A stretch of DNA of 60,072 nucleotides, counting the filler, from Hausera hauseri (lineage: Eukaryota), in the NCBI GenBank assembly GCA_046269625.1. It is 10 parts of 10 records of this genome, joined end to end, with 100 filler letters (N's around TTAATTAATTAA, not from the genome) between each part and the next. Parts side by side here need not be neighbours in the genome. Positions count along the whole stretch, not along the records: positions 1 to 8,424 come from JBJURY010647663.1; 9 more parts are not named here. One strand, given 5' to 3'. The notes under the pieces are model-generated. The model was not told the origin of the DNA, ran no database searches, and worked only from the letters and a program-made list of their open reading frames with translations. Shown in pieces: positions 1 through 51,097 of this stretch. Position 1 is the first letter of the stretch. Every line of letters starts with the position of its first letter. The position numbers and the translations under genes were made by a program.

Positions 1-901
1 TGTACTTTTCGATTTCTTTCTGTACTTCATGAGAATCCATACCGTTCTCTATCTGTTCCCAGGTGAGCATATGTCTGATGCTATTCAGATTATGTATATT
101 TCTGCGTGGAGCAATGATGCTCTTGAAGAGTATTTCACCTTTCTTGTCCGCTATCATTATTTCTACAGGTAAAGGGACTTGCATTCCATTGGATTTGTTA
201 CCGTAGGCAAAGGAGACGGCTAAGTATCTCGTGCTCTGAGCTTTACTGGTATACATAATGTTCGGTTCCCCTATCAGTTCCTCATCTGTTGGTTCTATTT
301 TGTACTTCAATGGGAGTAGATTCGGAAATTGTTTTTCTCGTCTAATAATTTCTATCATGCCCATATTTATCAACTCTTTGGCAATTATTCTTGTGTTCTT
401 AGAATCTATTGGGAAATTGATTTGACAAGATTCTTGTCCGTTTATGGTCTCCAAATTGTTCCTACGTCCTTTCAATCCCCTGAATACTAACATAATTTTC
501 CCAATTGCTAAATGTACGGTAATTCCGATATTGTCACCTGTCCAAACTGGAAATCTGAATGTGGTTTCGGAATTGAATATTTTGAAAGGAAGGATTGCCC
601 TGTTCCTTTGTTCGCCATATTTTAAATTATTGGGTATCTTGGTGACGTCGTTAATTCTATCCACTGGACGATCTAAATGTGCCAATATTTTATCATAGAA
701 AGAATAGCTCATGTTGTTTTCTGCTGTACTGAGTCTGAGTGTTGATCTTTTCTCATTTAATCGTTGAATTAGAATATTTCCGGGTATCTTAAATTCTTTG
801 TTTTCGTTACACTTAATTGGTTGATAGTTTGTGATTGTGCCGTGGTTTCCGAGTTCCGGCGCTTGATTAGATGAATTACCTAACAGATTTATTTTCGCCA
901 T
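1..901 (-). CDS. Open frame of at least 300 codons running off the window edge; last ~75 aa resemble the N-terminal half of a DEDDh (REX4/ISG20/DnaQ-like) exonuclease
   Basis: Manual translation from ATG at 901: MAKINLLGNSSNQAPEL...RYLAVSFAYGNKSNGMQVPLPVEIMIADKKGEILFKSIIAPRRNIHNLNSIRHMLTWEQIENGMDSHEVQKEIEKY, no stop before base 1. Absent from the ORF track because it has no stop in the window. Confidence 0.65.
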   Translation of the reverse strand, partial: MAKINLLGNSSNQAPELGNHGTITNYQPIKCNENKEFKIPGNILIQRLNEKRSTLRLSTAENNMSYSFYDKILAHLDRPVDRINDVTKIPNNLKYGEQRNRAILPFKIFNSETTFRFPVWTGDNIGITVHLAIGKIMLVFRGLKGRRNNLETINGQESCQINFPIDSKNTRIIAKELINMGMIEIIRREKQFPNLLPLKYKIEPTDEELIGEPNIMYTSKAQSTRYLAVSFAYGNKSNGMQVPLPVEIMIADKKGEILFKSIIAPRRNIHNLNSIRHMLTWEQIENGMDSHEVQKEIEKY

Positions 902-1112
902 TCTGCAATTGTACCAATGTTTTATAGTTCCCCAGGTTGGATGTGATTGGCCAATAAATGAATCTTCTTAACAAGTTAAATATCCCTTTCTGATTGGTTC
1001 TTAATTTGTAAAAAGTATAATACATCATGATTGGTCCGATAAGAGGAAGGATTGTGACTACTGAAGTTATGTCTAATTGTATTGGATGACGTAGGACCAA
1101 ATTTCTGAAGAT

Positions 1113-2936
1113 TCACAATGTTAGTATTGGCGCGAAGCAAAACACACTTTGCGTATTCTCATTTGGATCGGTTACAATGGGCTTATTGGTTGTCATATTA
1201 CTTATTTCGCTTATCTCCGTTCTATCATTTAAGGTAAAATGTGGCTCTGGTTTGATATATGTTTTATTATCTCGGATTACCGAATAATGAGATCTGTATA
1301 GCTTCCTCTTCTTACATTTGACTTTCTGTCCGAATGCGACTATTAAAATAACGATGATACCTAATGCTAACAAGATGAGAAATATCCACCAATATTGTGT
1401 AAGATACATTTCCGTAGTTATTGGCACGGATGTAGTTCTCTGCCAATTCCCATCTTCTTCATTGTAACGTATGTTTCTGTATCTATCTGCTGCAGGTAGT
1501 GTCTTTATGTCCAGAAGTTTAGAATTGTCATGAATTTTTATGTTCACTAAATAATTCGTGTCTGGGGTCAATTTTTCACAAAAATTCCGTTTGTTTGTAT
1601 TGTAATTGAAACTAATCTTCTCATGAGTACCTGTACATGTTATCAGGATACTCTGGTTATTTGGATTTTGTGCAAGTAGAATTTCAATCCGATTTACGTA
1701 TGGTGTTAACCTGACCTTTATTGGAAACTCTTTCATGAGTTTTCCATGAAACATGTGTTTGTTTATCGACTTCTGCATTACTATTTGCCCATTTCCTTGT
1801 AATTCTAATGTGAGTTTCCTTTTTGGCTTGTTTTGATTCTCTGCTCTTGATTTGCGTGGACTCCTTGTTGTTGAATTGTGTTGGCTCTCCGATTTTCCCC
1901 TATCCTTAAAAATGGAGGTCCGGGTAGGTGATGAATGTATAGCTATCCGAAGTGTAGTAAATGTGTTTGTAAGTGGAGGCGAGATCAGTCTCAATTGTGC
2001 CTGTGTGAGGGAGATAAAGATTGGTAGTTGTGATGAATGTATGCGTGTAGAAGGTTGTGTACCACGTCCAAAATACATATCGAAACGAATAATGTATCGA
2101 ATATCGGTGTGAAGAGTACAGCATACTTGCGGATGGGCTCCATTCAGATGGCATAGATGCGGTTGAGGCACAACGTGAGGGAAGGAGTCAAACCATATCT
2201 GAATTTCATATCCGAGGGGCAAAAGTTGTAAGGTTCGAAAGTTGATGCAGGAATGAGTCCGATGCACACCGATCATCACAAGATTATTCTTTAAGAATTG
2301 AGTAGTAAACCCATCGTGTAATGACGTAGGGGGGTTACCTAGAAAGTCCATGATATAATGCACTGGAACATGAATACTGAAATGAGGGTTCCATTTTGAA
2401 ATGTATTGCTCGTGACTAGACTTTTTAAGCAATATATAGTAAGAATATGACGTATCATATTCGAGTTGACTGCATGTCTGATTCTTTTTTTCAAAGATTG
2501 AACATGTGGTTGTTTCTATATCTGCTGAGGTAAAAACAATTGTAACTTCGTGTTGCAGGGGAACTGGTGAGTGTGTTTGGAGGCAAATGCTAGGTTCATC
2601 GACGTCGACGTGAGTAATGGTCGTGAGTTGAACCAAGTCGACATAGTCGTCCGAGGTTATTACCAGTTTCACAGAAAACGCTATAAGAAGTAATAAAACT
2701 ATACCAACGTATCTACCTGGAGTGAGGTGAACATGATAAGTAGCGGATTTGTGTGTATCCCGTTTTTGTTGCAGGGATAAAACAGCGACTTTGTTATCTA
2801 TAATTGTTGGAGACTCCAATTCTGTTTGTCTTATAAAGTCAGTGTATGAAGAGGGTGCTCTCATAACTCGTTGTACGGATACAGCTTCGTACTTGTCTGC
2901 ACCCTTTTGAATAAAGAGTCTGGGGACGAACATCAA
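1113..2936 (-). CDS. Integrase C-terminal tail continuing into a type I membrane protein (internal signal, Cys-containing ectodomain, FN3-like domain, TM, basic tail)
   Basis: 607-aa ORF. Hydrophobic GIVLLLLIAFSVKLVI (~2658-2708); FN3-like LTPDTNYLVNIK...IKTLP (~1495-1572); TM WWIFLILLALGIIVILIVAF (~1330-1392) followed by QKVKCKKRK. Confidence 0.7.
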   Translation of the reverse strand: MMFVPRLFIQKGADKYEAVSVQRVMRAPSSYTDFIRQTELESPTIIDNKVAVLSLQQKRDTHKSATYHVHLTPGRYVGIVLLLLIAFSVKLVITSDDYVDLVQLTTITHVDVDEPSICLQTHSPVPLQHEVTIVFTSADIETTTCSIFEKKNQTCSQLEYDTSYSYYILLKKSSHEQYISKWNPHFSIHVPVHYIMDFLGNPPTSLHDGFTTQFLKNNLVMIGVHRTHSCINFRTLQLLPLGYEIQIWFDSFPHVVPQPHLCHLNGAHPQVCCTLHTDIRYIIRFDMYFGRGTQPSTRIHSSQLPIFISLTQAQLRLISPPLTNTFTTLRIAIHSSPTRTSIFKDRGKSESQHNSTTRSPRKSRAENQNKPKRKLTLELQGNGQIVMQKSINKHMFHGKLMKEFPIKVRLTPYVNRIEILLAQNPNNQSILITCTGTHEKISFNYNTNKRNFCEKLTPDTNYLVNIKIHDNSKLLDIKTLPAADRYRNIRYNEEDGNWQRTTSVPITTEMYLTQYWWIFLILLALGIIVILIVAFGQKVKCKKRKLYRSHYSVIRDNKTYIKPEPHFTLNDRTEISEISNMTTNKPIVTDPNENTQSVFCFAPILTL

Positions 2937-5900
2937 CTACTTCATATGGTCCTTGACCAGTTCGTGTTAACTTTAGTGATTTGCTTTTCTTTGCGACTAG
3001 ATAATGAACCATTACATAATCGCCAACTTTGTAAATATGTGGGCGTGCTTTCTTGTTAAAATGTTTCTTATACCCAGCTTTGTACTTTTCTTCAAATTCT
3101 TTAGCCTCATGTTGAAAATATTCTAACCGTTTCAGTAGGTCTTGGTACTGTTCGTCCATGTGATCACTAATTTTTAAAGATGACGGTAGTAATTCGATGT
3201 CTAGTGGCAACAATGGCAAGCGCCCAAACATCAGTTCAAAGGGTGAATGGTTAGTGCTCTTCGTAGACGTAGTATTGACAGCAAAAGCAGTAGTTTTAAG
3301 GTGGAGATGCCAGTCCTTTTGATCGTGTGCAACCTTTGTTAAAAGTATGCCTTGGATTGTTCTCTTCATTCGTTCAATCATACCGTTACATTGCGGGTGG
3401 TAAGCAGCAGTAAGTAAATGTTTGCATTGAAATATTTTGGATAATTTTTCAAAAAATTCGCTAATAAAATAGGGCGCGCGATCAGTTAATAATTGTTTTG
3501 GTGTGCCTAGTACGGCTACTACCTCATAAAAATGCTTCGGCAACAGTGCTGCTAGTCATATTCTTTAATGGCACCAAGACGACATATCGCGAATAATAGT
3601 CCACAATTGACAGAATATATTTATATCCGGAATCAGACGCTTGAAAGGGACCGGATATGTCCATTGAACAAACTTCCATTGGTCTACGTGCTTCTGGTAG
3701 AGTCCCTAAGAAAGGTTTAGATCGAAATCCTCTATCTTTTCTTGTGGCACACATCTTACATAAGCGTACTCATCCTTCAATGTGTTTGTTCATCTGTGGC
3801 CAATAGTATTTCGCCGTTATTCGTTTTAATGTCTTATTCAGAGAAGGGTGGCCAGCTAAGTGAGAATCATGTTCTTGTAGCATGACAGCTTTGATTGCTA
3901 CTGACGGTACTATTACTAGTTTCCGCTCGCCAACTTTTAGTTGTAGAATTCCATTTTCTATTTTTAACTGTTCTTTGTGTTTATCATAGAATTTCTTAAT
4001 ATGACTTGATACTTGATCGGCCGACTGTTCATTGATCAGTTGTTTAATCTGTGCAATAAGTGTATCCTGTTTTTGTAGTGTTTCGATATTTCGAACCTGA
4101 ATCAATCGTTGCTCCTGCAACATCTCATTGATAACTGTCTCTTAGTTGTTTATCTTTTTCATTATCAGGTTTGTGAGTTGCTGCGATTATTCTTTCGTAG
4201 GGTAAACGGGAAATTGCATATGCGTCTATATTTTCCTTTCCTGGACGATATCGATATTCAATGTCATAATTCAAAAGCTCTAACTTCCATCTTTGGAGTC
4301 GGCTTGATACATGTCGATTATCAGATCGAAATGATAGTAAGGCCTTATGATCAGTGAATATGATGATTTTGTGTCCATAAATGTAATATTCGTAGTGTCG
4401 CAGTCCGTCTTTGATAGCTAACAACTCCAGTTCTGTTGTAGAGTATTTTCTTTCAGCACTATTTAAACTACGTCCGCCATATGCTATGACGTGTTCCGTC
4501 TTTTCTTCTGGACTTTGTTGGGTTAATATATAACTAATGGCATTAATACTGGCATCTGTTTTAAGAATGAAAGGTAAGTTAAAATCTGGGTATCTCAATA
4601 TCGGTGCTGATACTAATCTTTTCTTAATTTCGTCAAAAGCATTCTGATTTTCTTCACTCCATTCCCATTTTTGGTCCTTCTTTAACAATTTGTATTGTGG
4701 TTGATTGATTTCTGCAAAATTTTCGATGAAAGTGGAGTAAAATCCTCCTAAACCTAACCAAACTTTCATTTCATGTACATTGGTTGGTAAGGGATATTCT
4801 AATATTTTAGATATCAAGTCTCGACTAGTGGATATTCCTTTGTTTGAAACTATGAATCCAAGATATCGGACTTCGGTTTTACACCATTCACATTTCTTTG
4901 GATTCAGCTTTAATTTTGCAAGTCTGATTCGATCAAATACTTCTCTTAACTCTACTAGATGTGCTGACCATGTTGTTGAAGCGATTAAAATGTCATCAAT
5001 ATACGATAGGCCCCAAACTCCTTTAAGTACTAAGCGAATAAATTCTTGAAAGAATGCCGGCGCAGTCTTTAATCCGAATGGCATGCGGGTAAATTGATAC
5101 ACTCCGGTATGTGTCTTGAATGCGGTTTTCCATCGGTCCTCTTCTGCTACTGGAATTTGCCAGAATCCACTTTGCAAATCGAGAGTTGTAAAATAATTAC
5201 AATCTTTCAATTCATCTATGATATCGCGTATTCTAGGTATCGGGTAAGCATGATTCGCTAAATGCTTGTTTAACGTAACACAATTTACACATAACCGACG
5301 TTTCGTGGTATTAGCTTTCTTTGCCATAACTATAGGGGATGGCCAAGGTGACTGACTAGATTCAATGATGCCTTTGTCCAACATGGTTTGGATTTGTTCC
5401 TCAACTTCCTTTTGGAGTGCCTTTGGAGGCGGATACCATTTGGGTACTGGTTGTCGTAAAAGATCTGTTTCTTTCCCTGTCAGAGGATCAATCATAAATG
5501 ACAGCTTAAACTCAACCAAATCAGTCCGTCCAATATCTGTTTCATCTTTAGCAAATATATCAATATATTCAAAGATGAGGTCCGAGAGATTTTTTGGTAT
5601 TCATCTGATAAATTTTTCTTCGCTTTTGCGAGAATAAGATCAAGCATATCTTCAACAATTTCATTTGTAGACAGAGCTGCAAGTTTACCGTCATATTCTT
5701 TATGTAGAATAGTTTCGAGAGCATGTCCAAGCTTCGTTTTAGTAAATATCGTGACATATCTCGGAGTTGGATTCAATATTTCAATAGGGATTGTTCCGCC
5801 GATTACATTTACACAATAATGCGGTAGTATAAGTCTGTTCAGGAACGTTCTTGGTATAAATTCAATGACACTGTTGTCGGGAAACATTGTTCTGGCGTGT

Positions 5901-6976
5901 ACTACCATTCTAGAATATGGTGGTATCTTCTCGACATGTCCTATCCAAATGTCTTTATTTTCATAACTTGGCGGAAAATCCTCGTTATTAGGGCAAATTG
6001 ATCCTGATTGTAAATTTATGTGAACTCCTTCCAATCTTCTCAATACGTTCATGCCTATAATGCATCTGGGATCTAAATTTGTCATGACCTCGAAAATTAC
6101 TTTAACCTTTTGTCCGCAGATGATTGGTTCACTTTTCCAATGTCCGTATGGTTTGCTGCATTGCTGGAAAGCTGAGATTGTACCTAGAGTGTCTTTTGCT
6201 GCTAATTTTATCTGTGACTGAAGTTCGTCCGGGATTGCGTGTTTTGCTATCAGTGATATATTGGCGCCTGTATCTACCATGGCGTTTAGATCAAAGGTGC
6301 CAAAGTGAACGGTTGTATGTGGTCGATTATCTCTAATTAACTCTAAAAATGTCAATACATCATTATGATCGTCGATATGAGGTTCCATCAAGGTGTAGCT
6401 GGATGCACAATAATGTCTTGTTCCGTTAGGTAATATGACTGTTAAGCTTTCCAAAGATAGTGTATCCTTTTCTATTTCCTTTGTCTTTGATTTAAGTTCA
6501 GCCAAATCTGGATAGCAACTTAGGTGTCTAACGGTCTGTTGAGTACTATCTGATTCTGTTGTTGCCATTATTCGGTTAGACTGACTTTCTACAGATTTAT
6601 TTGTTCGGTGATAAGTCACTGGCGGCATCATATCAAGCTTAGGAGATAGTGGCAAGTTTATTCGGTTTCGTTCTATGTTTTGTGTAACAATAGACTGAAG
6701 TATTTCGTCTTGAGAAATTTTTGGTAGGTTACGCAATTTTATATATTCTTCTCTTTTTGTATATTGGTCTTCCAACTTCGGTAGATTGAAATTTGACATT
6801 TCATAAGGTGCACCTGGTACTTGGTGTTTATTCTTTGGTTTTTGTTTAATCTTTTCCTTTGATTTCATTAGTTTAAATAATTTCTTTTTCTTTTCTTGTA
6901 TATTGGATGTATTAGTTCTGTACCATGGTTTCCTAAATATGTTTTTGGTTTGCGATTCACTTACATATGAGCCCAT
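2839..6976 (-). pseudogene. pol: Gypsy pol (linker-PR-RT-RNaseH-IN) split by a few frameshifts and a stop
   Basis: VDTGANIS; LDLQSGFWQIPV, MPFGLKTAPAFFQ, YIDDILI; TDAS, YSTTELELLA, TDHKAL; integrase HHCC (HDSHLAGH...CKMC), MDISGP, TDRAPYF, YHPQCNGMIER, GPY. Confidence 0.95.
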
Positions 6977-7607
6977 ATTGGTGCTGTTTATATAGTTTTT
7001 TGAAAATGTTCAAATCTGGACATCAATAATTAAGACCTGCAGTGGGAAATTTGTATTGAATGAGATTCTGCATAACAGAATTTACAAGGTTTGACCAGAG
7101 TGAGTGCGAATGAATCCATCCTTCTCATCTTAAGATTATTTTTGTTTAAATGTCTGCCATAAAAGGTGGTGGGTGATTACTTCAAGGAATTATAGGTTTT
7201 CATCTGTAGTATGTTTCAATCCCTTTTACATACAGCACTTTTATATACAGCACTTTTATGTTCTAACTAGTGACCTCATTTTTAACACTAGACCTTTGTC
7301 TCTAGCTCTTAAAGGGAACTGAAACCAGTTTACAGGAGCTGCCCTGTTACGCTTTTGGAACCAAAAACTCAAAACTGGTAATGTGAGCAGATAAGTCCCA
7401 CCTACTTTTCGGCATGCAACCCAAACAGGAAATAACTAATTATTGTTGAACATGTTTAAAAAAAACATCTGAACATACAGCAGCAATTAGAGGAAACTCT
7501 GGTTCATTTTCCGAACTTAATAATCTCAATATTGCCCATAAAAAATGCCCTCATTAACAATGATGATTTCAAGACGGCAGTTTTTATACATGAGAAAATT
7601 GAAACTA

Positions 7608-8424
7608 CACTGTTAAAAATTCCCGTAAAATTATGGTCACTGACCATATAATTTGACGGGAAACGACCTCCATAGCAAAAAATGGTCTACGACCGTAAAA
7701 ACCCTTAGATCCCTATGAGCTTGAATGTATACTTCGCTGCCAGCTTTGAATTACGGTCGCTGGTACTAAAATAGCCACATTCGCTTAAGTCACGTGGTGT
7801 CATCTGTGAGCGAGGATCCGAGATCAGTCGCCTCGCCGCCATTAAAACAGCATTGTTGGACGTTTTTTGAGGTAAGTTTCTTTATTTATTATTCGTTAGT
7901 AAGTTTTGTTATTAGTATACTTTGAGTATAGAATTGAGGATGTTATTTCTCAGTCTGTACTGAAATATACGTCATAGAATATATATACGGTTTATATATA
8001 TTTATTTTTTTCTCTTTAGAAAAAAAAGTGTTTACACCACCTAAAAGTTAAGCATGAGCATGAGAGTGTTTGCAGGTGTGTGATGCACATCGGGGTTCTT
8101 TCATGTAGTAAATACACTGGTATTAAGTGAATCAGATTTAAACACAATGTGTGTCCAGGTGATGAGCGATTCAGGCTTACGGTTCTTCCCGGGTGCAGTT
8201 CACAAAGTGCCATCGGGATCACACAGAAGAGAGTTTTGTCTCCACTTTGACTCTAATACATTGTAATTTGATATTTTGGCACAATAACCTGCATTCTTTT
8301 TTCAGATGTCTTTTGAGAACTAACTGGGCCTTTGTAACTGTGTACACATGGATGCAGCCAGATACACACACATGCTCATGAATCACACAGCTTGATTGTA
8401 TATTGGATGAGGACGGCTTTCATT
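7608..8424 (+). mobile_element. Possible CACTA/CMC-like DNA transposon end followed by spliced exon fragments
   Basis: TA|CACTGTTAAAAA start, internal palindrome TTCCCGTAAAATTATGGTCA-C-TGACCATATAATTTGACGGGAA (~7620-7662), splice-like GAG|GTAAGT (~7872) and polypyrimidine-AG (~8019, ~8305). Only one end seen. Confidence 0.3.
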
Positions 8425-8524
8425 NNNNNNNNNNNNNNNNNNNNNNNNNNNNNNNNNNNNNNNNNNNNTTAATTAATTAANNNNNNNNNNNNNNNNNNNN
8501 NNNNNNNNNNNNNNNNNNNNNNNN
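8425..8524. other. Artificial scaffold linker
   Basis: N44-TTAATTAATTAA-N44 (stops in all six frames). Confidence 0.98.
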
Positions 8525-9432: not shown

Positions 9433-10094
9433 GAATGAACTGTACAAGTTAACACAATTACTCGTAAAAATGGCGGAGATTAGCAATGAGAAGGTGAGAC
9501 AATTGATGCCTCAAATACGACAGGCTGAAGAAACGTGCATTAGAAATAAACAAAGAGCAGTAAAGTTAGACGAACTAATAAATGAGCTCGAAATTTATAG
9601 GAACAAGTATGCTTTTACTGAGTCAGAAATTAACAGGAAGATAGTTTATACAAAGATGGCAAAGGAATGTAATTATCGAGGTAACCGACTATCATCAAAA
9701 GGAACTCATTCCTGCTAACGAAGTAGGCAAACTATTAAAACTGATCCAGTACGCTTCTGGAAACGGAATAGATTTCCGGACCACACAGATGAAAGAAATA
9801 CAACCGAGATTAAAGGACATTCGAGAGAATGTGCAAAGAATGAATACAGCACTAGCAGACAATGGACTTCCAGAAGTTGGAATGGGATGCTTACTTAGAT
9901 GTCATGTCGAAAATCCGATGACTCCAGTACGGTTAAATGAAACAGAAATGTATCCGCCGAACAGAAAATTATACGTGGAGACGCTCCTGAATTCGACTCT
10001 AAATTATCTTGTGAGAACGCAGTTTACAGCGCGGTGCCGAAACTTTTGATAAGGAAACATGCTAAAATCTTAAGGGCTAAAACCTGAGGTAACG

Positions 10095-10305
10095 ATGAAA
10101 ATAAAGATATCATCTGAGTGGATGGATGAAAGACAATGTGAGTTAACCACATTCCTGTGTGAGGGATGTAAGAGAATGGTTGATAAATAATGGTAGAATA
10201 AATGAACTATAGACTCTACTTTAGAGGTAGAATATTAGACGACTTAGAACCGTTAATAGACGTTGGAATTATACTTGATGAAACAAACCGAATAGTAGTA
10301 ACAGT
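10095..10305 (+). pseudogene. Ubiquitin-like domain within the retroelement coding region
   Basis: MKIKISSEW...YRLYFRGRILDDLEPLIDVGI...IVVTV aligns with ubiquitin [20 protein letters not shown]; no C-terminal GG. Confidence 0.6.
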
Positions 10306-10965
10306 AGCTAATGAGCAGACTAAAGAAGCCACACGTAAGACTAAGACAGCACAATGCGTAGGACAAATTATGGGAGTCCGAGACGCCGCCATGTATTTTG
10401 AGTATCTGCAAACGGATGAAGACAGGGAACAGTATGACAAGAATTTAGTACCAATAAGTGAAATGACAACGACGGTTTCAAAACAGAAATGCCCTGTAGG
10501 TAGGCTCAGGAAAATATGAGATGTTTACTATAACGGAGAATTGATTAAAGAATTGAGACAGATGTCAATTTCTATCTTCAGCGCAGACAACGAAGAATTA
10601 AGCGAGTTAATGAAAAATCTAATACGCATCGTAAATTATTCAAGCCTCCATGGTGACGTATTAGACGAAAAAGAAAAAGCGATATTTAACGCAGCAAAAA
10701 CGATGAAGATCATGGTGAAGAATGCAATAGAAGAGCTAAGGAAAGTATTAGTGTACTTAGCTATTAAGAGAAATCCCAGTAAAGAGAATGAATTTAATAG
10801 AGCTACAAGCTTGATAAGAAAAACAGCTAGAAAACTGCCTCGAGAAATAAACTGGCTACGACTATTCGATAAAAAAGAAGATAAACGATCCAGCAATAGT
10901 AACCGACTCGAAGACGTGTTACAAAATCTCACAACAACGGAAAATAACAACCATAGAAAGGAGTC

Positions 10966-12625
10966 CAATTGGCTAATCAACTTACTCACCTTGATGATAT
11001 TGGTAAAACAGATAGGTGCCCTTACCATCTATGACTGCAATAAATTTAAACTTGGACAGAAATACTGCTTAATGGATTTAGAGGCGTGCGAAGATGCCAG
11101 ATCGCATAAACTAGAGAAAGGAGAAAAGTTATTTTCTATACCAACAACAAGAATTGATATCATTGGATGGAATGAAATGTATGTTACGGCGATCATGTAG
11201 CATTTTCCACTCTGGGTTAATACACGGACATTCGCCGATAATTAAACCGACGACTCACCTAATTCCAATGAACTTAGAACGACAACATTGTAAAGAGGCA
11301 AGGGAAACAGGAAGATTAAAGTGGGATGGTATGGAACTGGAAATTCAACCTGGAAAGATAATTAGAGCATATAAAGTAGTGGCTGGGAGGCTAGATATGT
11401 ATAACGGACAGTGTAATGAAAATCAAAAATGCCATTTACAAGACGGAACATGTGCTTTTAGAAGTTCTGTTATAATAAGGGAACCCCCTTCAGGAAGAAA
11501 TTGTAATTTTATCAAAATCAAGGAATTAAAATTTAATGAAACTACCGGAAACTGATATGTGGATAAATCTGATAGCAACTCAAGAACAGGCGAGGACGTG
11601 GCAGAACATCCTACACTTACTATTTTGACCGCCGATCCGCATGGACTAAAATTTTTTAAAAGGGAGATGATCCCACTTTGCGAAATTGTGATGTTCGCCA
11701 TTAATTATGAAGCAGAAACGGAAATAAGTGCAAATACTTACAACCTTGAGACGCAAGGTATTCGTATTGAAGATTACCTAAAAAATCAAGACGATTTTTA
11801 CTACAGAGTGCAAATCGGAATTACCGAATTAAATCACAAAATGATAAAGAATAATTGTAAATTGGATATGGAAATCATGAGGACAAAATTAGCTCTTATC
11901 TACGCTAACCATGATTTAGCATCGCCAATAATTCTGATGAGAGAAGGAATTTTCGGTCGAGTTACCGGTGAAGTCTTATTGACTTATGAATGTGAGAAAC
12001 GAGACGTACCAATCAATGTCGAAGAAAAACGGTGCGTACAAGAACTCCCCCTTATTTATCAGAACACTCAATGCTTAGCCATGCCGCTTACTAGAGTATT
12101 ATTAGATAATGCTACCGAACCAACGATCCTTAAGGAATGTAAGGCAAGTTTAGTAGAACTCATGTAGCGAAACGGATTGGGTAAGCTTGCCAAATGAAGG
12201 TATTAATGTCGCTCGAAATTCAGTTAACAGGAACTAACCTAGTAAAAGGGATAACGGACGACAAATTCCAAGCACCTCATCAAAAGGTATTATAGACCAA
12301 AGGAAATTGATGCGTTCAGACAATTTCGTGCCTTTCCGCGACAACGAACGCATACATTAAACCGAGCCATAGCCTAAGTAGTACATGATACTCGATATCA
12401 AGCTAAATTACCATTACCAACGACTAACCACGGAAATACTCTATAAAATATTAGGAAGATTTGTAATTTTTGGACAAGCTGCATCTGGATTTTTAACCAT
12501 TTACTTTTTAGTCCAATTAATTAAAGCGGTAATCCAAGCTATTATAAACTGATATGAAATATTCACATTGACAGGATTCTCCTGCAAAATTTTTACCGCA
12601 ATCATCACACCCTTCGGAAAGATGC
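10966..12625 (+). pseudogene. env: Chuvirus-like envelope glycoprotein (presumed class III fusogen), frameshifted
   Basis: Signal NWLINLLTLMILVKQIGA then LTIYDC...LMDLEAC (11021); VAGRLDMYNGQC; GEVLLTYEC..CVQELPL..PLTRVL; Y.PKEIDAFRQFRAFP..TLN; C-terminal FGQAASGFLTIYFLVQLIKAVIQAIIN*YEIFTLTGFS. All match, in order, the chuviral G motifs as I recall them. Confidence 0.85.
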
Positions 12626-13505: not shown

Positions 13506-13605
13506 NNNNNNNNNNNNNNNNNNNNNNNNNNNNNNNNNNNNNNNNNNNNTTAATTAATTAANNNNNNNNNNNNNNNNNNNNNNNNNNNNNNNNNNNNNNN
13601 NNNNN
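13506..13605. other. Artificial scaffold linker
   Basis: N44-TTAATTAATTAA-N44. Confidence 0.98.
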
Positions 13606-14306
13606 TAGCGCGTTTGCAAAAGTTCATGAACTCGTTGCAGCTGTTCCGAATAGAGGTTAGCATCTATTGCGTGATCCTCTGGAATGAGTTTTAAGTGCAG
13701 TACTCCCTCAAAATTCCACCAGACGTCCTGCATAATCTTCCTTTCAAATCGCCTTCTTCGAACAACCGGGACTGCTGATTGACTGGGCATCAACCATTTA
13801 TTATCCTTGTAGGGATTGCTTAAATAAATCCATTTTTCATCCACAGTCACAAATCGTTTCCAGAATCGGGCATCCTGAGTATTGGCAAGGAGTTGTTGAC
13901 AGATGTCCATACGACGTTGAGCATTCGCTGGAGTTAATTCATGTATAATTTCTCGATAGCGTCTGTTGCGGAACCAAAGTTGCTGGAGATGGCGATAAAT
14001 GGTGGTATAATGGGGACCAAGTTCTTTTGACAATCTGCGTGTACTGGTGGCTGGCTGGTTTTTCGCTGTTTGTATCAGTGCTGTGTTGTCAAATGTGGAT
14101 GGGCATCCGGATCGGGTTTTGTCTTCGAGGCTTGTGTCAACTTCATTGAAGCGCTTGAACCATTCTGCTGCTGTAGTCTTGTTGACGACCCTTTCACCTT
14201 TCACTGCACAAACTACCTCGGCTGCAGTTCTTATGCTGAGCCCTTTTTTCCAATAGTGACGCAATTTTTTCATCACACATTGCGATACAGTAGATCGAAT
14301 AAGCAA
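13606..14306 (-). mobile_element. mariner transposase fragment, cut by scaffold end
   Basis: WFKRF..DTSLEDKTRSGCPS, IIHELT (WVPHEL-like), VTVDEKWIY, VWWNFEGVLH, YSEQLQRV. Confidence 0.9.
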
Positions 14307-14529
14307 CAGCTGCAGTGACTTGCGTGGAAAATTCTAGAAATAAGGATGTAATTGATGCATTTTTTTCTTGAATNNNNNNNNNNTAAGTGATTCGTTATCT
14401 AATTTATTCTATGTCTGAACCTACATCTTGTTCATAATCCTCGTTAATCATGTCCATATCTTAAAATCTCAAGTAATCAGTTTTCTAAATTTGGCGAGTT
14501 ACACGTTATTGAACATGACTATACATATA

Positions 14530-16146
14530 CAGTAGTGGCGGAAAATCTACTACCTTTTAGTTTTCTGCGCATATTTTCGTTTAAACTCAATGTATTTGGT
14601 TGCAATTTAAATATGCTATCTATTAAGCCGCGGAGAGTACTGTACAGAGTGTCATTAAACTTCTGCAAGCGATTTTCAAAATAGAATAGGTTTATTTATT
14701 TTTTTATCAAATAAAGTACAGTCAGCAGATTGAATTCAATATTGCAAAATGCTGCAAACGTAACATAAAGTGTAACTTTGCACACATGTATTGTGAATCT
14801 AGTACTTTGTAGGAAAGACTCGAGCATCAACTGCAGCTTGGCATTTTCGGGACATGGAGTCGATTAGGTTGTCAATGACGCTCTGAAGGATTTTCTTCCA
14901 CTCCTTCTCAAGCTGACGGAACTTCTCATCCACATTTTTGGCATGAACACTTTTCGGGCGACGGTCTAACATCCCAGATATGTTCAATGGGATTGAGGTC
15001 CGGGGATAGGCTTGGCCACTTCATAACCTTCATTCTCCGTTGGTCGAACCATTTGCGCACTAGGCCTGATGAGTGTTTAGGATTACGTTCGTGCTGGAAA
15101 ATGAACCAACGTTCAAAAACATGACGTGCATATGGCAGCATGACCTTATCGAGGATTTCCACATACTCCTCTTTTTTCATGATGCCACTGATATGATGCA
15201 GAGGACCAACTTCGCGAGCACTGAAGCAACCCCACATCATAACTGAACCTCCTCCATGCTTGACAGCAGGAATCTGGTACTTTGGATCGAAGCCTTTGCC
15301 TTTAGGACGACCATCACTTCCAAACAGCATGAACTTTTACTCGTCGCTCCAGAGGGCCTCCTACTATTGCTAAGGAGTCCACGTGAGGTGGTCATGTGCA
15401 AACACTAGTCGAGCTCTTCTGTTCTTCAAAGAAACCAGCGGTTTTATGGTGAGGCATCGTCCCTGGAGTCCAGCTGTCTGTAGACGACGTCGAACAGTTC
15501 GGATGGACACTTTAACTCCATCGTTCTCAGCTAGTTTACTGGAAATTTCAACTGCTGTCAGCAGGGGGTTGCTTCACGACAGTCGGAGCAGTGTTCTGTC
15601 TACCAATGTGTTGGTGATACGTGGTCTTCCAAGGTTCTTCTTCTTCTCAACTTTTCCCCTTATCTATACTCTCTTCAAAAGCTTCGATATTGTTGTTCCT
15701 GAGACACTGAACTGCTTAGCAAGCTTCCGCTTCATACCTTAACGCCGTCCATTGAAGATCGCCTCCATTACTTCAGTCGACAGGTTATTGCTACCAAAGT
15801 TACGGGCCATACGTCCAAGAATAACACAAAAATAACAAAATTATATCCAACCAAATCACAACAAAACTGTTTTAAATAACTATATTTGATGACACCAACG
15901 TTTCGATTAACAATATGTAATCTTTCTCAAATCTTTATGGCTTAATTAGTTTACTTGGATATCTGTTATTTTCAGCCAATGAAAACAATGAAAATTACTC
16001 TACCATACCGGAAAGTTATATAATAATAAGGTTGAAACTTTCAATTTTGATTCAACTTAAATAAAATTAATTAACGGGAATAAAATTGAGTTTAAACGAA
16101 AATATTCGCAAAAAACTAAAATGTGATAGATTTTCGGCCGCTAATG
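14530..16146 (-). mobile_element. Full-length degenerate Tc1-family transposon with ~60-bp imperfect TIRs and TA target duplication
   Basis: TA|CAGTAGTGGCGGAAAATCTA...TTTAAACTCAAT versus ATTGAGTTTAAA...TAGATTTTCGGCCGCTAATG|TA. Confidence 0.92.
14799..15810 (-). pseudogene. Tc1 transposase pseudogene
   Basis: WSDE, VKHGGGSVMMWGCF, QHERNPKH (degenerate QDND), WPSLSPDLNPIEHIW, PTKY*; stops and frameshifts. Confidence 0.92.
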
Positions 16147-26958: not shown

Positions 26959-28743
26959 AAATCATTCATTAAGGAGAATTATAAAGTTAGGGATTATTTC
27001 CATTTCACGTGCACATATCGAGGTGCAGCATACAACATGTATAAAATATTTACATATGTGCCTATAGTGTTCCATAATCTCAGTGGTTATGATTCCCATT
27101 TCATTGTTTGAAACTGAGCAGCATTGAATGAAACACTGATATGATCCGTAATAGTGAGGAAAAATACATCACATTTACCAAGCATGTTGGAAAAATCAGG
27201 CTTTGTTTCATAGACAGTTTCCGTTTTATGTCGTCTTCACTTGAAAGTTTAGTGAAGAACCTCCCAGCAAAAGAACTCAAGGAGACTAAGCGGTTCTTTC
27301 TCATTGCATTTGATCTATTCAAAAGGAAAGGCGTGTTTCCTTATGACTATATAACATCATGGGAAACACTGGATGAGGCCTCATTGCCGGCCAAGAAGGA
27401 TTTTTACAACATCCTCTCTGATTGCAATATCAGTGATATGGATGACCAGCATGCTCAAAATGTCTGGCATGCATTTCAATGACGAATATTAGCAGAATAC
27501 AGCGACATATACCTAAAGACGGACTTGCTGCTTCTGACGGATGTCTTTAAGAGTTTCAAGGATGCTACGATAAAGAGCCATGCATTGGATCCGGCTCATT
27601 TCTTTACGGCTTCATAGATGAGTTTGGCAGCTGTGCTGAGATATACAGGTGTCAGGCTACAGATCATAAAGGATTACTACATGATCCTCATAATTGAGAG
27701 AGGCATTATAGGCGGAATATGCCAGGCCATCCACCGGTATAGTGAGGCAAACAACAAGGAATCCTCATATTTATCATACCTGGATGCCAACAACTTGTAT
27801 GGATAAGAAATGAGCGCCCCATTGCATATGATAACTTCAAGTTGGTTGAGCATCCCGAAGGCATCCTTATACTGGACCTGGATTCCAATGGAGATACAAG
27901 CTATATACTGGAAGTAGATATGGAATATCCGGCTTCTATTTACAAAAGGAATGAGCATCTGCCTTTCCTTCCTGAGAACAAAAGACCTCCGAATGGGGGA
28001 TTAGAAAAGTTACTGTGCCATCTTCGAAATCGGGAAAGACATGTAGTCCACTACATAAATCTCCAGCAAGCGGTCAGAAATGGACTCCGTGTTATTAAGA
28101 TCCATTGGACCCTGCAGTTCAGCCAGTTCATGTGGCTGCAGCCATACATAGATCTCAATACCAAGCTACGGACCAATGCCAAGAACGACTTTGCGAAGGA
28201 TCAGTTCAAGCTATACATCAACAGCGTTTTTGGCAAGACCATAGAAAATATCCGCAACAGGGTTAACATCGAACTGGTCTCTGAGTGGAAGCGGGCATAG
28301 AAGCTCATTGCCAAACCAAATTTCCACAGTAGCATCATATGTGCGGAGAACTTGGTCAGCATCCATATGCTGAAAACATCCTTGCAATTCAACAAGCCCA
28401 TATATGTGGGTATAGCAAAAATGGACCTGTCAAAGACCCTGATGTACAAATTCCACTATGACATCATGGTCCCTAAGTTTGAGTCCATGCAGCTGATGGA
28501 TATGGATACTGATAGTTTCATCTATCAGATCTATACAGATGATATTTTAAGGACTTTGTCCAATTGGCACATCACATGAATATCTCGGATTATCCGAAGG
28601 AACATTCCAACTATTCAATAGCCAACAAAAAGGTCCTTGGGAAATTCAAAGACGAGGTGAATGGAGCAATCATCTCGAGATTTGCAGCTCTTAGGTCCAA
28701 AATGTATGCCATTGATATATTTGGCCAAGTAACGAAGAGGGCT
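26959..28743 (+). pseudogene. polB: Maverick/Polinton protein-primed DNA polymerase B (exonuclease and polymerase domains), disrupted and 3'-truncated
   Basis: VRDYFHFTCTYRGAA, FHNLSGYDSHF, FIDSFRFMSSSL, KGVFPYDY, YLDANNLYG, KLYINSVFGKT, MDTDSFIY, LGKFKDE, LRSKMYA. Confidence 0.95.
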
Positions 28744-28744
28744 G

Positions 28745-29460
28745 TGTCACCGCGTCGGATTTATAGTTGTACCCGATCCCCCGCCGCGAAAATGTCACAA
28801 GATGACCTTCTCACACATGAACGGAAGAAAGTTTTGTTATTCCCAAATCTGTATCAATCGATTTAGTCAGCTCATCCCTGCAAAATTCTCAACCTTTTGT
28901 TATCCGTTATCAGAAACCTGATTCATTCATCAGGCCTACCGATGAAAATTTTATTTTGAAAAACATCGGCGAATTTCAAGACAACGAAAGATTTGTTTGT
29001 ATCATTTGAAAATTGGAAATCAGGTACTACATACAGCTTCACGGTTTTTGCTCCAAACATTCTTGGAAATTCATCTAAACCAAAGGAGTCATATGAATCA
29101 ACATTGCGACCAGATTTTAAAGATTTCAAATTAAATTCCATCGAAAATGGATTCAATCACAAAGTTAATGTTTCATGGACTTTCGAGGTTCGCCGGAACT
29201 GTTCGCATTACTTCACCGTAAGTTACAAAATCTCTGGTAAAAACTCTCGTACAAATACAACAAACAATACAAATTTGTTATTAAATGAATTGAACACGAA
29301 CGAGGTTTACAACGTCACAGTCAGACCAGAATTAAGAATAAAAACAGAGAACAATGAAAAGTTTGGTCGACCACAATTTCAAATATTTTATACAGGAAAG
29401 CAACTCATTAGAATCACAAATGTCAGATTAAATAATTCTCTCAGTAATCAAATAGAGACA
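28745..29460 (+). pseudogene. Fibronectin type III repeats (host surface-protein fragment)
   Basis: VPDPP.., NWKSGTTYSFTVFAPNILGNS, VNVSW...FTVSYK...LNELNTNEVYNVTVRP. Confidence 0.7.
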
Positions 29461-29779
29461 ATTTCATGGATTTCCTTGAAGAAGATATTTTGGCAATTTT
29501 CAATTATTTGGAAGTTTGTTTCGTCAAAAGCAAAACTTATAAATTCAATTTTTATATCATCATTAAATTAATTCTGTTTTATACAATTTTTTATTTAATT
29601 TTATACTCAAAAGATCGTCATGAAGTACGAAAACGAAAGACGCTTGGAAAATGATAATTATTATTCTGATGACGAAAGAGGCGGATACGGAAATATGTCG
29701 TCAGAACAAAAAGAAGCAGGATTGCATCTTATTCGTGCGGTACGCTATTGAAATTGAATATTATAAAAGCAGCCCATTT

Positions 29780-30120
29780 ATACCCGACGAAATGGGAATG
29801 ACTACATTGCATCATGCTGCAGAAAATGGAAATTTTCTTGTCGTACAACATTTACTGCATTCATTTTCTGACATTGACGTTGATCACCAATCAGCCGCCG
29901 GTCGCACAGCACTACCAATTGCCTGCTGTAACGGATATCTTGATTTGGATTCGTTGGGTTATCATTCTTTGTTGTGGGCCATCGAGAAACGTCATTTGTC
30001 AGTCGCTCTATTTCATCAATGAGACTGATGTTGATGTAACAATGAAAAATAATTTTGAGGAAGATGCCTGCTAACTTGCTCTAGAATTGGATGATCCCCA
30101 GTTGTTTGATATTTTAAACG
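29780..30120 (+). pseudogene. Ankyrin-repeat fragment, frameshifted
   Basis: DEMGMTTLHHAAENGNFLVVQHLL..DVDHQSAAGRTALPIACCNGYLD..GYHSLLWAIEKRHLSVALF. Confidence 0.85.
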
Positions 30121-31242: not shown

Positions 31243-33340
31243 CATAAAGCATATCATCAAATTCCTGTTGCACCTGATGATATTCCAAAAACTGCTATCA
31301 TTACTCCATTTGGCCTCTATGAATACATCTTTATGTCATTTGGTTTACGTAGTGCTTGTCAAACTTTCCAACGGCACATTGATACCGTACTCTCGGGTCT
31401 AGATTTCCCTCATCCATATATTGATGATATACTACTTTTCTCTACGTCTGTCAAACAACATCAAGAATACCTTCGTATTATCTTTCACAGATTACATTAT
31501 AGCAATTTGCAAGTCAACTTCTCCAAGTGTCATTTCTTTCAAAAACGTGTAAATTTCCTAGGTCACGGCATCATTCCTGACGGCCACTCTCCACAACCGG
31601 ATTGACTACAATATTTAAATAATATAACTATACCAACGACTACCACGGACATGAGAAGCTTCTTAGGCACACTCCACTTCATCCAAAAATACGTACCACA
31701 TTGCTCTGAGCTTACAGCACCTTTCGCACATCTATCATCCGGAAAAAAGAGGCAGTTGTTCCACTGGACTCCAGATTTGGTAACGAAGTTTGATCACTTG
31801 CGCGAAGGTCTTAAAACCGTAGAAATACTGGCTTGTCGGAAACCCAAGGCACATCTTATTCTTTCAACCGATGCCTCAACCACAGCTACTGGCCCTGTAC
31901 TACACCAGATTTCTAATGGCGTTGACGAGCCATTATAATTCTATTCTAGGAAGCTTACACAACCCGAGAGCCGTTACTCCACATTTGACCGTGAGTTACT
32001 CATTATAGTTGTGGCAGTAAAACACTTCAAACACTTACTTCTCTCTCGTTTATTTGTAATTCAAACTAACCATAAGCCTCTGCTGCACATCATGTCGTTA
32101 AAAGAGCCATCACCGAGGCAAGAGAGACATATATCATACGTGTCTACGTTCAGTTTTGCTTTGGAATATATCTCGGGCACAGATAACTTGTAGCTGACTT
32201 TCCATCGAGGTCGGTTGGATCCATCACAGTTGAGCCGATTTTTTCATCTGAAGTCTTAAAGGCAATCAACCATCTGCTGATTTCCTCAGTTCCTTCAAAT
32301 CCTTCGAGATCATTGATGGAATAGCTTTTTATACTTCTAACACAGAGAATAAAAAGATCATTCTTGCTCCATCGCTACAAAAGACAGCTTTCAACCACTT
32401 TCACTCTCTTCATCATCCGGGTTTAAAAGCCACATTTCGCCTACTACAACACCACGTTGTATGGCCAACTATGCGTACAGATGTAGAGATCTGGGTCAAG
32501 GGATGTGCAGCATGCCAGCAATACAAGGCCCACAAACACCTAAAACCACCACTTTACTACTTCCCTTGTACGTCCAGTTTTGACACTGTGCATTTGGATA
32601 TTGTCGGTCCTTTGCCATCCGACAACGGCTATCAATGCATCTTATCTATGATGGATCGAGCTTCACGCTGGCCTGAAGCCGTTCCGCTTCGATCAACCAA
32701 CACTGACTCTGTAGTAGATGCATTTATTAAGATATGGGTCAGCCTTTTTGGTTCATCACGTTACATCATAACGGACCAGGGTCCGCAATTTGAAGCTGAT
32801 CTTTTCAAATCTCTAGTAAAGCACTTGGGGATAGCCCACTTCCATATGACGCCGTACCATCCCCAAGCAAGTGGCCTTCTTGAGAGATTTTACCGCACCA
32901 TGAAAATTTTATTTAAAAATTCTGGCTAACAGCAATCGCAATTGGACCTCGATTATTCCTCTTGTCCTACTTGGTTGGCGCAACAGGCCATCCACTACCA
33001 CAGGTTGTGCTCCGGCTGAAGCTCTCTTTGGGACACCAATTCGTGCACTATTTGAGCTTTCCAATTTGGATGAAAGTCCATCTGATGAAGTTATTCGTGC
33101 AGCACAGTCCCACTTTGTAGAGGTAAACTCAAACGCCTTTTGTCGTCTTATAAATAAAGATAAATCTTATATTCCAGAGGACATATACTCAGCCAAATTT
33201 GTATGGCTGAAAGATCCGTAACCTTCAGGTTTTCGGCCTCAATACGTTGGACCTTACAAATTACTAAATCTTTCTTCGCATAATGCCACCATTTTGCGTA
33301 GGGACAAACTTCAGAACGTACATATTTCTAACCTTAAGCC
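31243..33340 (+). mobile_element. pol: Gypsy pol (RT-RNaseH-IN) pseudogene, CsRN1-like lineage
   Basis: AYHQIPVAPDDIPKTAIITPFGLYE, YIDDILL, TDAS, YSTFDRELL, HLDIVGPLP, DRASRWPEAVPL, TDQGPQFE, YHPQASGLLER, GPY. Confidence 0.92.
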
Positions 33341-46900: not shown

Positions 46901-49900
46901 CATTCGTTCTTTCGTTCTTTCGTTCGTTCTTTCAATCCTTCCTTCCTTCTTTCATTCGTTCGTTCTTTCATTCGTTCATTAGTTCCTTTGCTCGTTCGTT
47001 CGTTCTTTCTTTCGATCGCTCGATGGATCGTTCTTTTATTCGTTCCTTCGTCCGTTCATTCTTTCTTCCTTTCGCTCGATCGATTGTTCTTTCTTTCGTT
47101 CCTTCGTTCCTTCTTTCTTTCCTCCCTTCGTGAGTTCGTTCTTTCTTCCGTTCGTTCATTCGTGACTTCGTTTCTTCGTTCTTTCGTTCGTTCTTTTGTT
47201 CGTTTTTTTGTTCGTTCTTTCGTTTCTTCGTGAGTTCGTTCCTTCGTGAGTTCGTTCATTCGTGAGTTCCTCTTTCTTTCATTCTTTCCTTCTTTCCTTC
47301 TTTCGTTCGTTCATTTGTTCATTCTTTCGTTCTTTCCTTCGTTCTTTCGTTCTTTCGTTTCTTCGTTCCTTCGTTCCTTCCTTCGTTCTTTCATTCCTTC
47401 ATTAGTTCGTTTGTTCTTTCGTTCCTTCCTTCGTTCTTTTGTTCATTCGTTCGTTCGTTCATTCGATCGTTCCTTCGTTCGTTCCTTTGTTTGTTCCTGC
47501 ATTCGTTCGTTCGTTCTCTCATTCGTTCGTTCGTTCGATCTCTTATTCATTCGTTTGTTTGTTCGTTCGTTCGTTCTCTCGTTCGTTCCTTCGTTCTTTC
47601 TTTCGTTCGCTCGATCGATTGTTTTTTCTTTCGTTCCCTTGTTCTTTCTTTCTTTCGTTCGTTCATAGTTTCATTCGTTCTTTCGTTCCTTCGTTCGTTG
47701 GTTCATCCGTTCGTTTGTTCGTTCTTTCGTTCGTTCGTTTCTTCGTTCGTGCGTTCGTTCGTTCGTTCGTTCTTCCGTTCGTTCTCTCGATCGTTCGTTC
47801 TTTCGTTTTTTTGTTCGTTGGTTCATCCGTTCGTTCGTTCGTTCTTTCGTTCGTTCGTTTCTTCGTTCGTTCGTTCGTTCTTTCTTTCGTTCTTTCGTTC
47901 TATCATACGTTCGTTCGTTCGTCCGTTTTTTCATTCTTTCCTTCGTTATTTCTTTCTTTCCTTCGATCGTTCGTTCTTTCCCTCGTTCCCTCGTTCGTTC
48001 CTTCGCTCGTTCGTTCGTTGTGTCATTCGCTTTTTCGTTCTTTCGTTCGTTCCTTCGTTCGTCCGTTCGTTCTTTCGTTCGTTCCTTCATTCCTTTGTTC
48101 GTTTGTGAGTTCGTACTTTCTTTTATTCCTTCCTTCTTTCATTCCTTCGTACGTTCTTTCTTTCGTTCATTCGTTCCTTCTTTCGTTCTTTCGTTCTTTC
48201 ATTCGTTCGCTCGTTCGATCATTCGTTCACTCGTTCTTTCGTTCATTCGTGAGTTCCTTCTTTCGTTCATTCGTTCCTTCTTTCGTTCTTTCGTTCTTTC
48301 ATTCGTTCGCTCGTTCGATCATTCGTTCATTCGTTCGTTCGTTCGTTCATTCTTTCGATCGTTCCTTCGTTATTTGGTTCTTTCTTTCTTTCCTTCCTTC
48401 GGTCTTTCTTTCGTTCTTTCATTCCTTCATTCGTTCGTTTGTTCGCTCGTTCCTTCCTCCGTTCTTTTGTTCATTCGTTCGTTCGTCCTTTCGAACGTTC
48501 CTTCGTTCGTTCCTTTGATCCTTCCTTCATTCGTTCGTTCGTTCGTTCTTTCCTTCGTTCGTTTGTTCGTCCGTTTGTTCTTTCTTTCGTACGTTCGTGC
48601 GCTACTTCCTTCCTTCGTTCGTTCGTTCGTCTATTTTTCCTTCTTTCCTTTGTTCATTCGTTCTTTCGTTCGTTCGTTCGTTTGTTCGTTCGTTCGTTCG
48701 TTCGTTCCTTCTTTCGTTGGTTCATCCGTTCGTTCGTTCGTTCTTTCGTTCGTTCGTTTCTTCGTTCGTTCGTTCGTTCGTTCGTTCGTTCCTTCTTTCG
48801 TTGGTTCATCCGTTCGTTCGTTCCTTCTTTCGTTTGTTCGTTCGGTCGTTCGTTCCTTCGTTCGTTCGTTCGTTCGTACGTTCCTTCGTTCCTTCGCTCA
48901 TTCTTTCGATCGTTCGTTTGCTCCTTCCTTCCTTCGTTCTTTCGATCGTCCTTTATTTCGTTCTTTCTTTTGTTCATTCGTTCTTTCATTCGTTCGGTCT
49001 GTCGTTCGTGAGTTCGTTTCTTCGTTCGTTCGTGCGTTCTTTCGTTCATTCGTGACTTCGTTCCTTCCTTCATTCTTTCTTTAGATTACTCGTTCTTTCG
49101 TTCCTTCGTCCATTCGTTCGTTCGTTCGTTCGTTCGTTCCTTCTTTCATTCCTTCATTCGTTCATTTGTTCGTTCGTTCGTTCGTTCGTTCTTTTGTTCG
49201 TTCGTTCGTCCGTTCTTTCGTTCTTTCCTTTGTTCATTCGTTCTTTCGTTCATTCTTGAGTTCGTTCTTTCGTTAATTTGTTCCTTCTTTCCTTCTTTCG
49301 TTCGTTCCTTCGATCGTTCGTTCGTTCCTTCAATCGTTCCTTCGTTCGTTTGTTCGTTCGTTCCTTTTTTCCTTCGTACTTTCGTGCGCTCCTTCCTTCC
49401 TTCGTTCGTTCGTTCGTCCTTTATTTCGTTCTTTCCTTTGTTCATTCCTTCTTTCGTTCATTCGGTCGTTCGTTCGTGAGTTCGTGAGTTCGTGTGTTCG
49501 ATCCTACGTTTGTTCCTTCGTTCATTCTTTTGTTCGTTCTTTTCTTTGTTCTTTATTTCGTTCGTTCAATCGTTCGTTCTTTCGTTCCTTCGTTCCTTTC
49601 TTCATGAGTTCGTTCGCTCGTCCTTCATTCGTTCGATCTTTCGTTCCTTCGTTCCTTCGTTCGGTCGTCCGTTCTTTCGTTCTTTCCTTTGTTCATTTGT
49701 TCTTTCGTTCCTTCGTTTGTTCCTTCGTTCCTTCCATCGTCTGTTCGTTCCTTCAATCGTTCTTTCGTTTTTTCGTTCGTTCGTTCTTTCCTTCGTTCCC
49801 TCGTTCGTTCCTTCGCTCGTTCGTTCGTTGTGTCATTCGCTTTTTCGTTCTTTCGTTCGTTCTTTCCCTCGTTCCCTCGTTCGTTCCTTCGTTCGTCCGT

Positions 49901-50192
49901 TCGTTCTTTCGTTCGTTTTTTCGTTCCTTCCTTCCTTCGTTCTTTCGCTGTTTCGTTCGTTCTTTCGTTTGTTCGTTCTTTCATTCTTTCGTTCGTTCCT
50001 TTATTCCTTCGTTCGTTTGTGAGTTCGTACTTTCTTTCATTCGTTCCTTCTTTCATTCCTTCGTTCTTTCATTCGTTTGCTCGTTCGATTATTCGTTCAC
50101 TCGTTCTTTCGTTCCTTCGTGAGTTCCTTCTTTCGTTCATTCGTTCCTTCTTTCGTTCTTTCGTTCTTTCATTCGTTCGCTCGTTCGATCAT
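43963..50192. repeat. Degenerate tetranucleotide tract: (CGTC)n then (TTCG/TTCT/TTCC)n, with an internal N gap at 44222-44409
   Basis: Directly visible; strongly pyrimidine-rich on the plus strand. Confidence 0.98.
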
Positions 50193-50960: not shown

Positions 50961-51097
50961 TGGTGCCCACGTTCATCCAATGGGCGATTTGATAAAAAAC
51001 TATTTTGTTTGAATATTTAAATAAAAAATAAACTTTTGTGTTTGCCGTACGAAACTATTGTTTTATAATTGCATGATTTTTAATCAACTATTTCCAA

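Follow-up and report, generated by a model that had tools for sequence, protein, structure and literature searches.

Exonuclease cargo of gypsy elements is already known, and the accessory ORFs of animal LTR elements are for the most part unexplained; to our knowledge, few transposon-encoded counter-silencing proteins have been described in animals. Nematode Cer elements, which Malik et al. in 2000 are said to have described with an 'Exo' domain next to an env-like ORF, are BEL/Pao elements and belong to a different LTR superfamily from the Ty3/gypsy element presented here. Closer relatives come from bdelloid rotifers: in the available parts of the cited sources, the Ty3/gypsy elements Juno and Vesta carry a DEDDy (RNase D-like) ORF3 with its invariant residues intact (PMC5408684), rotifer Athena/Terminon elements also carry DEDDy ORFs (PMC5408684, PMC6431247, PMC5718144), and a DnaQ-like domain is counted among the well-known accessory domains of LTR elements (PMC6338049). 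On the host side, the available part of PMC5408684 describes two piRNA-pathway proteins, Maelstrom and EXD1, as DEDD derivatives that are inactive but still bind RNA. CERV, an accessory protein of the C. elegans element Cer1, is made from a spliced message and is needed for export of the genomic RNA, as stated in the accessible portion of PMC10309623.

We analyzed a window of 60,072 nucleotides from Hausera hauseri (GenBank assembly GCA_046269625.1), built from joined assembly pieces, in which positions 1-8424 (JBJURY010647663.1) hold a Ty3/gypsy element. The pieces are 4-12 kb long, need not adjoin in the genome and are separated by joints (8425-8524 and eight similar), each with a 12-base spacer (in the first joint, TTAATTAATTAA) flanked by N44 on either side. 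Like the rotifer elements, this one carries, as a separate ORF downstream of pol, what appears to be a DnaQ-superfamily 3'-5' exonuclease domain, its function being predicted in both cases. Our literature search, with subscription papers, supplements and Repbase/GyDB lying outside it, turned up no LTR element with an exonuclease ORF that is of DEDDh type or inactive, and the available passages of PMC11662393, PMC13269885, PMC9094657, PMC13524379 and PMC2774666 hold nothing on such an ORF.

Gene order of the element

On the - strand, the element reads zinc-knuckle remnant, protease ORF, RT-RNase H, integrase, ORF3, a 211-nt spacer and ORF4 (Table 1). The best PDB match of the RT was the Ty3 Gag-Pol (E 2e-75); because this closest solved relative of the RT is Ty3, we place the element in Ty3/gypsy, and pol indeed follows the order PR-RT-RH-IN with a Ty3-like RT. 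The copy is broken, in that the protease, RT and integrase pieces lie in different frames and a stop falls inside integrase. The 5' end has decayed, and neither the rest of gag nor a 5' LTR was recognizable upstream of the zinc-knuckle remnant. No LTR pair was visible and no long direct repeat was found within 1-8424, the window ending before the 3' end of the element, and a search of viral and metagenome contigs gave no loci related to the RT.

Table 1. Features of the element and of its accessory ORF4, in window positions
Feature	Position	Strand	Basis or remark
gag zinc-knuckle remnant (C-x2-C-x4-H), near 7086	7040..7095	-	motif
Protease-containing ORF, frame differs from RT in this copy	5492..7009	-	PF00077, E 8e-8
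Reverse transcriptase and RNase H, Ty3/gypsy type	4125..5600	-	PF00078, PF17917, PF17919
Integrase core with H2C2 zinc-binding region, split into three pieces here	2839..4141	-	PF17921, E 1.6e-12; rve weak
ORF3, 607 codons, env position	1113..2936	-	start overlaps integrase tail in another frame
ORF3-ORF4 spacer, 211 nt	902..1112	-	overlapped by diverged contigs of sibling copies
Accessory ORF4, at least 300 aa	2..901	-	runs off window edge; open-frame analysis
ORF4 N-terminal region, aa 88-209, common to P0003	275..640	-	blastp E 2e-6, 27% over 133 columns
First half of putative DEDDh-like (DnaQ/PolC/RNase T type) domain, aa 226-300	2..226	-	homology to P0003 246-317, pairwise E 1e-7
Exo I D-x-E position, reads S230-F231-A232	206..214	-	alignment; N258-L259-A260 in P0003

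ORF3 has a strong C-terminal hydrophobic segment at aa 518-536 and a weaker N-terminal one at about aa 69-98, and the C-terminal membrane segment carries a basic tail. The protein returned no Pfam or PDB match and contains no R-x-K/R-R site; its stretch LTPDTNYLVNIKI resembles a fibronectin type III strand by pattern only. The product of ORF3 may be a surface protein of non-viral type and not a fusogen, and its translation may continue from the integrase tail. The spacer that follows contains no polyA signal and no long repeat with a copy elsewhere in the piece, and has one 9-nt purine run.

In the next assembly piece, broken ORFs at 11115-12167 (+) match the Monjiviricetes fusion glycoprotein (PF24664, E 1e-13 and 0.003) and are preceded by unannotated ORFs at 9645-11200; they probably represent either an endogenous viral fragment or the env-like gene of a different element. 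At 27746-30022 (+), a fragment of a protein-primed-type DNA polymerase B is followed by weak fn3 and ankyrin ORFs, a Polinton/Maverick-like remnant. Remnants of mariner and Tc1 transposases, a further integrase and a further protease-RT-RNase H occupy 13554-14333 (-), 14926-15336 (-), 32252-32929 (+) and 52514-54419 (-), while 34424-42813 and 44412-50187 hold, respectively, 124 copies of a 68-bp satellite and a 5.8-kb degenerate GTTC array. The sole clear host gene among the ORFs scanned is an ARMC9 N-terminal region (PF23138, E 5e-41) with one 221-codon open stretch at 51077-51742 (+). Taken as context, ARMC9, mariner and Tc1 indicate that the host is an animal.

ORF4 and its sibling copies

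ORF4 runs stop-free for 300 residues from the ATG at 901 to base 2, and the same frame is open from 967. Each of the other five frames has 10-29 stops over 1-967, and the chance of 300 open codons at the local composition is about 3e-10. The ATG has A at -3 and G at +4, with an acceptor-like TTGCAG directly before it. ORF4 is a real gene. Translation and stop counts thus bear out an earlier sequence-only reading of this DNA, which had claimed 300 open codons from this ATG on the same strand as pol; protease, RT-RNase H and integrase are indeed all on the - strand. The motifs it quoted are all present, although the domain that it began at about 229 starts at about aa 226. The protein contains YLAVSFAY at aa 226-233 (window 226-203), PVEIMIAD at 245-252, LFKSIIAP at 258-265, IRHMLTWEQIENG at 275-287 and SHEVQKEI at 290-297. 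Family searches with the N-terminal region (aa 88-209) gave no family match. The window covers just about 75 residues, the first half of the putative C-terminal domain, with Exo II and Exo III lying beyond the edge; low-confidence secondary structure prediction gives aa 226-300 three strands followed by two helices.

Five public runs contain parts of 1-3000, and contigs of four of them were aligned (418, 56, 16 and 10). Many of these contigs, whether they fall on ORF4, on ORF3 or on the integrase tail, are less than 90% alike; this points to a multi-copy family, although contig depth cannot be read as copy number. The spacer is crossed by an overlapping series of diverged contigs from sibling copies (X2 269-1037, unaligned over 824-888; X3 885-1090; X4 1026-1174), and this overlap, together with the multi-copy behavior, supports the claim that ORF4 is part of the element. 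We regard it as very unlikely that ORF4 is foreign to the gypsy element, whether a neighboring host gene or part of another repeat. Such an origin would fit with the fact that no LTR or polypurine tract was located, that the window stops before the 3' end of the element, and that ORF3 to ORF4 is spanned by none of the contigs listed. Against it, the spacer is short, ORF4 shares its strand and its coding-strand A-rich bias with pol (A 0.40 in ORF4, 0.35-0.40 in pol and 0.32 in the upstream flank), the ORF is intron-free over 900 nt, and it carries many variant contigs, as ORF3 and integrase do, with diverged ones overlapping one another across the spacer.

The differences listed between sibling copies were largely silent. 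In bases 1-330, 11 of 16 were silent across four runs, where 20% (all changes) or 32% (transitions) would be expected (p 4e-5 and 3e-3, values that overstate independence because the copies share ancestry). Over ORF4 the count was 13 of 22, among the 40 of 452 differences that were listed. None of these differences created a stop, and one low-depth X4 contig had a one-base insertion in ORF4. Judging from these substitutions, the ORF4 protein is evidently under purifying selection. Sibling contigs in three runs extend 219-306 bases past the window edge.

A search of 1.84 billion representatives with the ORF4 protein returned two matches, P0002 and P0003. P0003, 333 aa long and taken from an ENA assembly, is a true homologue, with 27% identity across 218 columns (E 5e-4), and both halves of the ORF4 protein match it separately (Table 1). 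We discarded P0002, a repetitive archaeal protein of CheA type with P2 and CheW domains (pairwise E at least 0.01). Among candidates of 165-583 aa, a range that places fused forms outside it, the ORF4 protein had 0 matches in 352, P0003 as query recovered itself alone in 494, and the two as a pair recovered P0003 alone in 1380. Viral and metagenome contigs contained no loci related to ORF4; three phage tblastn matches to its domain (E 3-7) were disregarded, and P0003 had none. On its own, the ORF4 protein found no match in Pfam, NCBIfam or PDB sequences and matched PHROGs at E > 0.1 only. Full-length P0003 likewise had no family in Pfam, NCBIfam or PHROGs at a meaningful E, and an Atlas search with the whole of P0003 gave no usable match. 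Neither protein had a Pfam match to the DEDDy family; the best matches, made by P0003 and by the two-sequence profile described below, are of DnaQ/PolC type.

A probable DEDDh-like domain and its Exo I position

The likely relationship to DEDDh exonucleases runs through P0003. A two-sequence profile of the ORF4 protein and P0003 had two PDB matches at E <= 10, the better being the PolC exonuclease 2P1J (E 0.06). For P0003 248-333, the top Atlas cluster scored 0.91, where 0.9 is reached by 4-10% of shuffled proteins and the score is uncalibrated for protein parts; RNase_T (PF00929) was assigned to 16% of the 64 cluster members, and the ten best family-bearing matches share a family or clan. On a DnaQ/PolC profile from a prokaryotic reference set of 16 sequences (E. 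coli dnaQ and L002 plus 14 phage matches out of 40 listed), P0003 scored 15.7 bits, compared with 2.5 for the next of 358 targets and 8.7 for the best of 2000 shuffles. The pair profile against a 15-sequence DnaQ profile scored 34.9 (52% probability); as controls, shuffling the columns 150 times gave no score above 21.3, and reversal gave 12.1. The ORF4 protein alone fell in the same register as P0003 at -1.3 bits (its own shuffles reach 10.2) and at 1.2% probability in the profile-profile comparison, and two AlphaFold models gave no confident fold (mean pLDDT 32 and 29).

These data suggest that the C-terminal domain of ORF4 very probably has a DEDDh origin, by a link that is transitive through P0003. 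The register is shared with the PolC/DnaQ proofreading domain (2P1J) and PF00929 over strands 2-3 and two helices, where P0003 reads PIEI..D..G...LIAP...I....ITGI....L. Unlike these, ORF4 has its Exo I D-x-E replaced, and scores stay below all curated cut-offs. P0003 continues into FIITGF where DnaQ proteins carry the Exo II strand and ends at the start of that strand, which may reflect a break in this copy or a domain that is truly shorter. Each single signal is modest, and the ORF4 protein and full-length P0003 lack a meaningful Pfam, NCBIfam or PHROGs match, as would be expected if the resemblance were a coincidence produced by a three-stranded meander and helices of another fold. We consider this quite improbable, given that the DnaQ profile, the PDB profile search and the language-model features, which are partly independent, all rank DEDDh first, that they agree on one register over about 65 residues, and that P0003 runs on into FIITGF at the right position.

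REX4 and ISG20, to which the sequence-only reading had likened the ORF in proposing a DEDDh-like domain with a degenerate Exo I motif, belong to the RNase_T family PF00929. That domain assignment found support by way of P0003 (profile, PDB and Atlas) and none from the ORF4 protein taken alone; the proposed profile check against DnaQ-like families divided in the same way, positive for P0003 and negative for the ORF4 protein. The degenerate Exo I was confirmed, as S-F-A in ORF4 and largely so in P0003 as N-L-A. All aligned DnaQ reference sequences have D12 and E14, and the T and G after them are likewise invariant. The ORF4 protein has no D or E between E212 and E247, so no alignment register can supply Exo I; E247 itself falls on the glutamate of the DnaQ motif IIEI, which is non-catalytic. 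In P0003, E261 lies one place past the canonical E position. The sibling copies, where a check of catalytic residues had been advised, list no amino-acid change at aa 230-232 in four runs and a silent change at S230 alone (partly fitting contigs may escape listing).

Since the sibling copies are unchanged and P0003 reads N-L-A, loss of Exo I appears to be a trait of the family and not decay of this copy, and it is probably old. Two-metal DEDD catalysis requires both Exo I acids, which bind the metals. Because these acids are missing, canonical activity would be excluded whatever Exo II and Exo III read, and from this family knowledge we infer that canonical exonuclease activity has been lost. 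With Exo I gone, we do not class ORF4 as a DEDDh exonuclease; it is likely a DEDDh-derived pseudo-enzyme. The conserved G-I motif, ITGI in P0003, reads IRHML in the ORF4 protein and is lost, so that the binding pocket may also have drifted.

Possible roles and relation to known systems

On balance, we think that ORF4 is an accessory gypsy gene for a non-cutting pseudo-exonuclease of likely DEDDh fold that likely binds the 3' ends of the element's RNA or cDNA. For a selected gene on a retroelement, encoding a nuclease fold with no catalytic centre, the binding surface is what would most plausibly be retained, and the fold may have been kept for it as in Maelstrom and EXD1. The protein would probably be made from a spliced or subgenomic RNA; the TTGCAG before the ATG would fit a spliced message, by analogy with Cer1 CERV. 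It would then coat or cap the ends of the element's genomic RNA or cDNA, which would be shielded from host 3' trimming and small-RNA processing or escorted for export and packaging. A bolder version, which we put forward only tentatively, is that a lineage of invertebrate gypsy elements kept a disarmed DEDDh exonuclease as a decoy over a divergence to about 27% protein identity. Such a pseudo-enzyme silencing suppressor would occupy RNA 3' ends or outcompete host DEDD trimming nucleases of the small-RNA pathway.

Two other readings accept the DEDDh origin and differ on what the domain now does. Maelstrom domains without DEDD reportedly cut RNA, and a derivative that still cuts, its active site rearranged and using acids from other positions, could trim the ends of the element's RNA or cDNA. 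The two proteins share several acids (E247/E271, D252/D276, E282 and D289), P0003 has E261 beside the Exo I strand, and Exo II and III lie outside the window. We nevertheless judge this reading unlikely: E247 matches a non-catalytic glutamate, the ORF4 protein carries no acid on strand 1 or close to it, and RNase H-like enzymes with incomplete active sites are often inactive, according to the available part of PMC3985635. Alternatively, the fold may now serve as a protein-interaction or structural module, for instance for a host silencing factor, Gag or the ORF3 tail. Loss of the Exo I acids along with the G-I motif, a net charge of only +2 over aa 213-300, and the long attached N-terminal region without a family would all suit such a module. 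This too seems improbable to us, as no direct evidence points to any partner and the inactive DEDD derivatives described in the available part of PMC5408684 keep RNA binding.

If the RNA- or cDNA-binding reading is true, ORF4 would represent a second, independent type of exonuclease cargo, DEDDh as opposed to DEDDy, selected after losing its catalytic acids, and would indicate that elements value the DEDD fold for binding rather than cutting. If it is just another uncharacterized extra ORF, it is a modest extension of the rotifer observation. ORF4 offers a small soluble protein open to direct assay.

Like Maelstrom and EXD1, the ORF4 domain appears to be a DEDD-derived fold without the canonical catalytic acids, for which action through RNA binding is proposed; those proteins are host silencing factors, whereas the ORF4 domain stands on the transposon side, and no sequence match links them. 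With CERV the analogy is functional alone, and the accessible portion of PMC10309623 mentions no nuclease-like domain for it. The rotifer ORFs are DEDDy with an intact DEED and stand as ORF3, whereas ORF4 follows a separate membrane-protein ORF3, shows a DnaQ/PolC/RNase T (DEDDh) pattern free of Exo I acids, and has about 225 residues without a family preceding the domain. What sets this locus apart among exonuclease-carrying gypsy elements is thus the putative DEDDh type, the fixed loss of Exo I, the family-less N-terminal region and the position behind a membrane-protein ORF.
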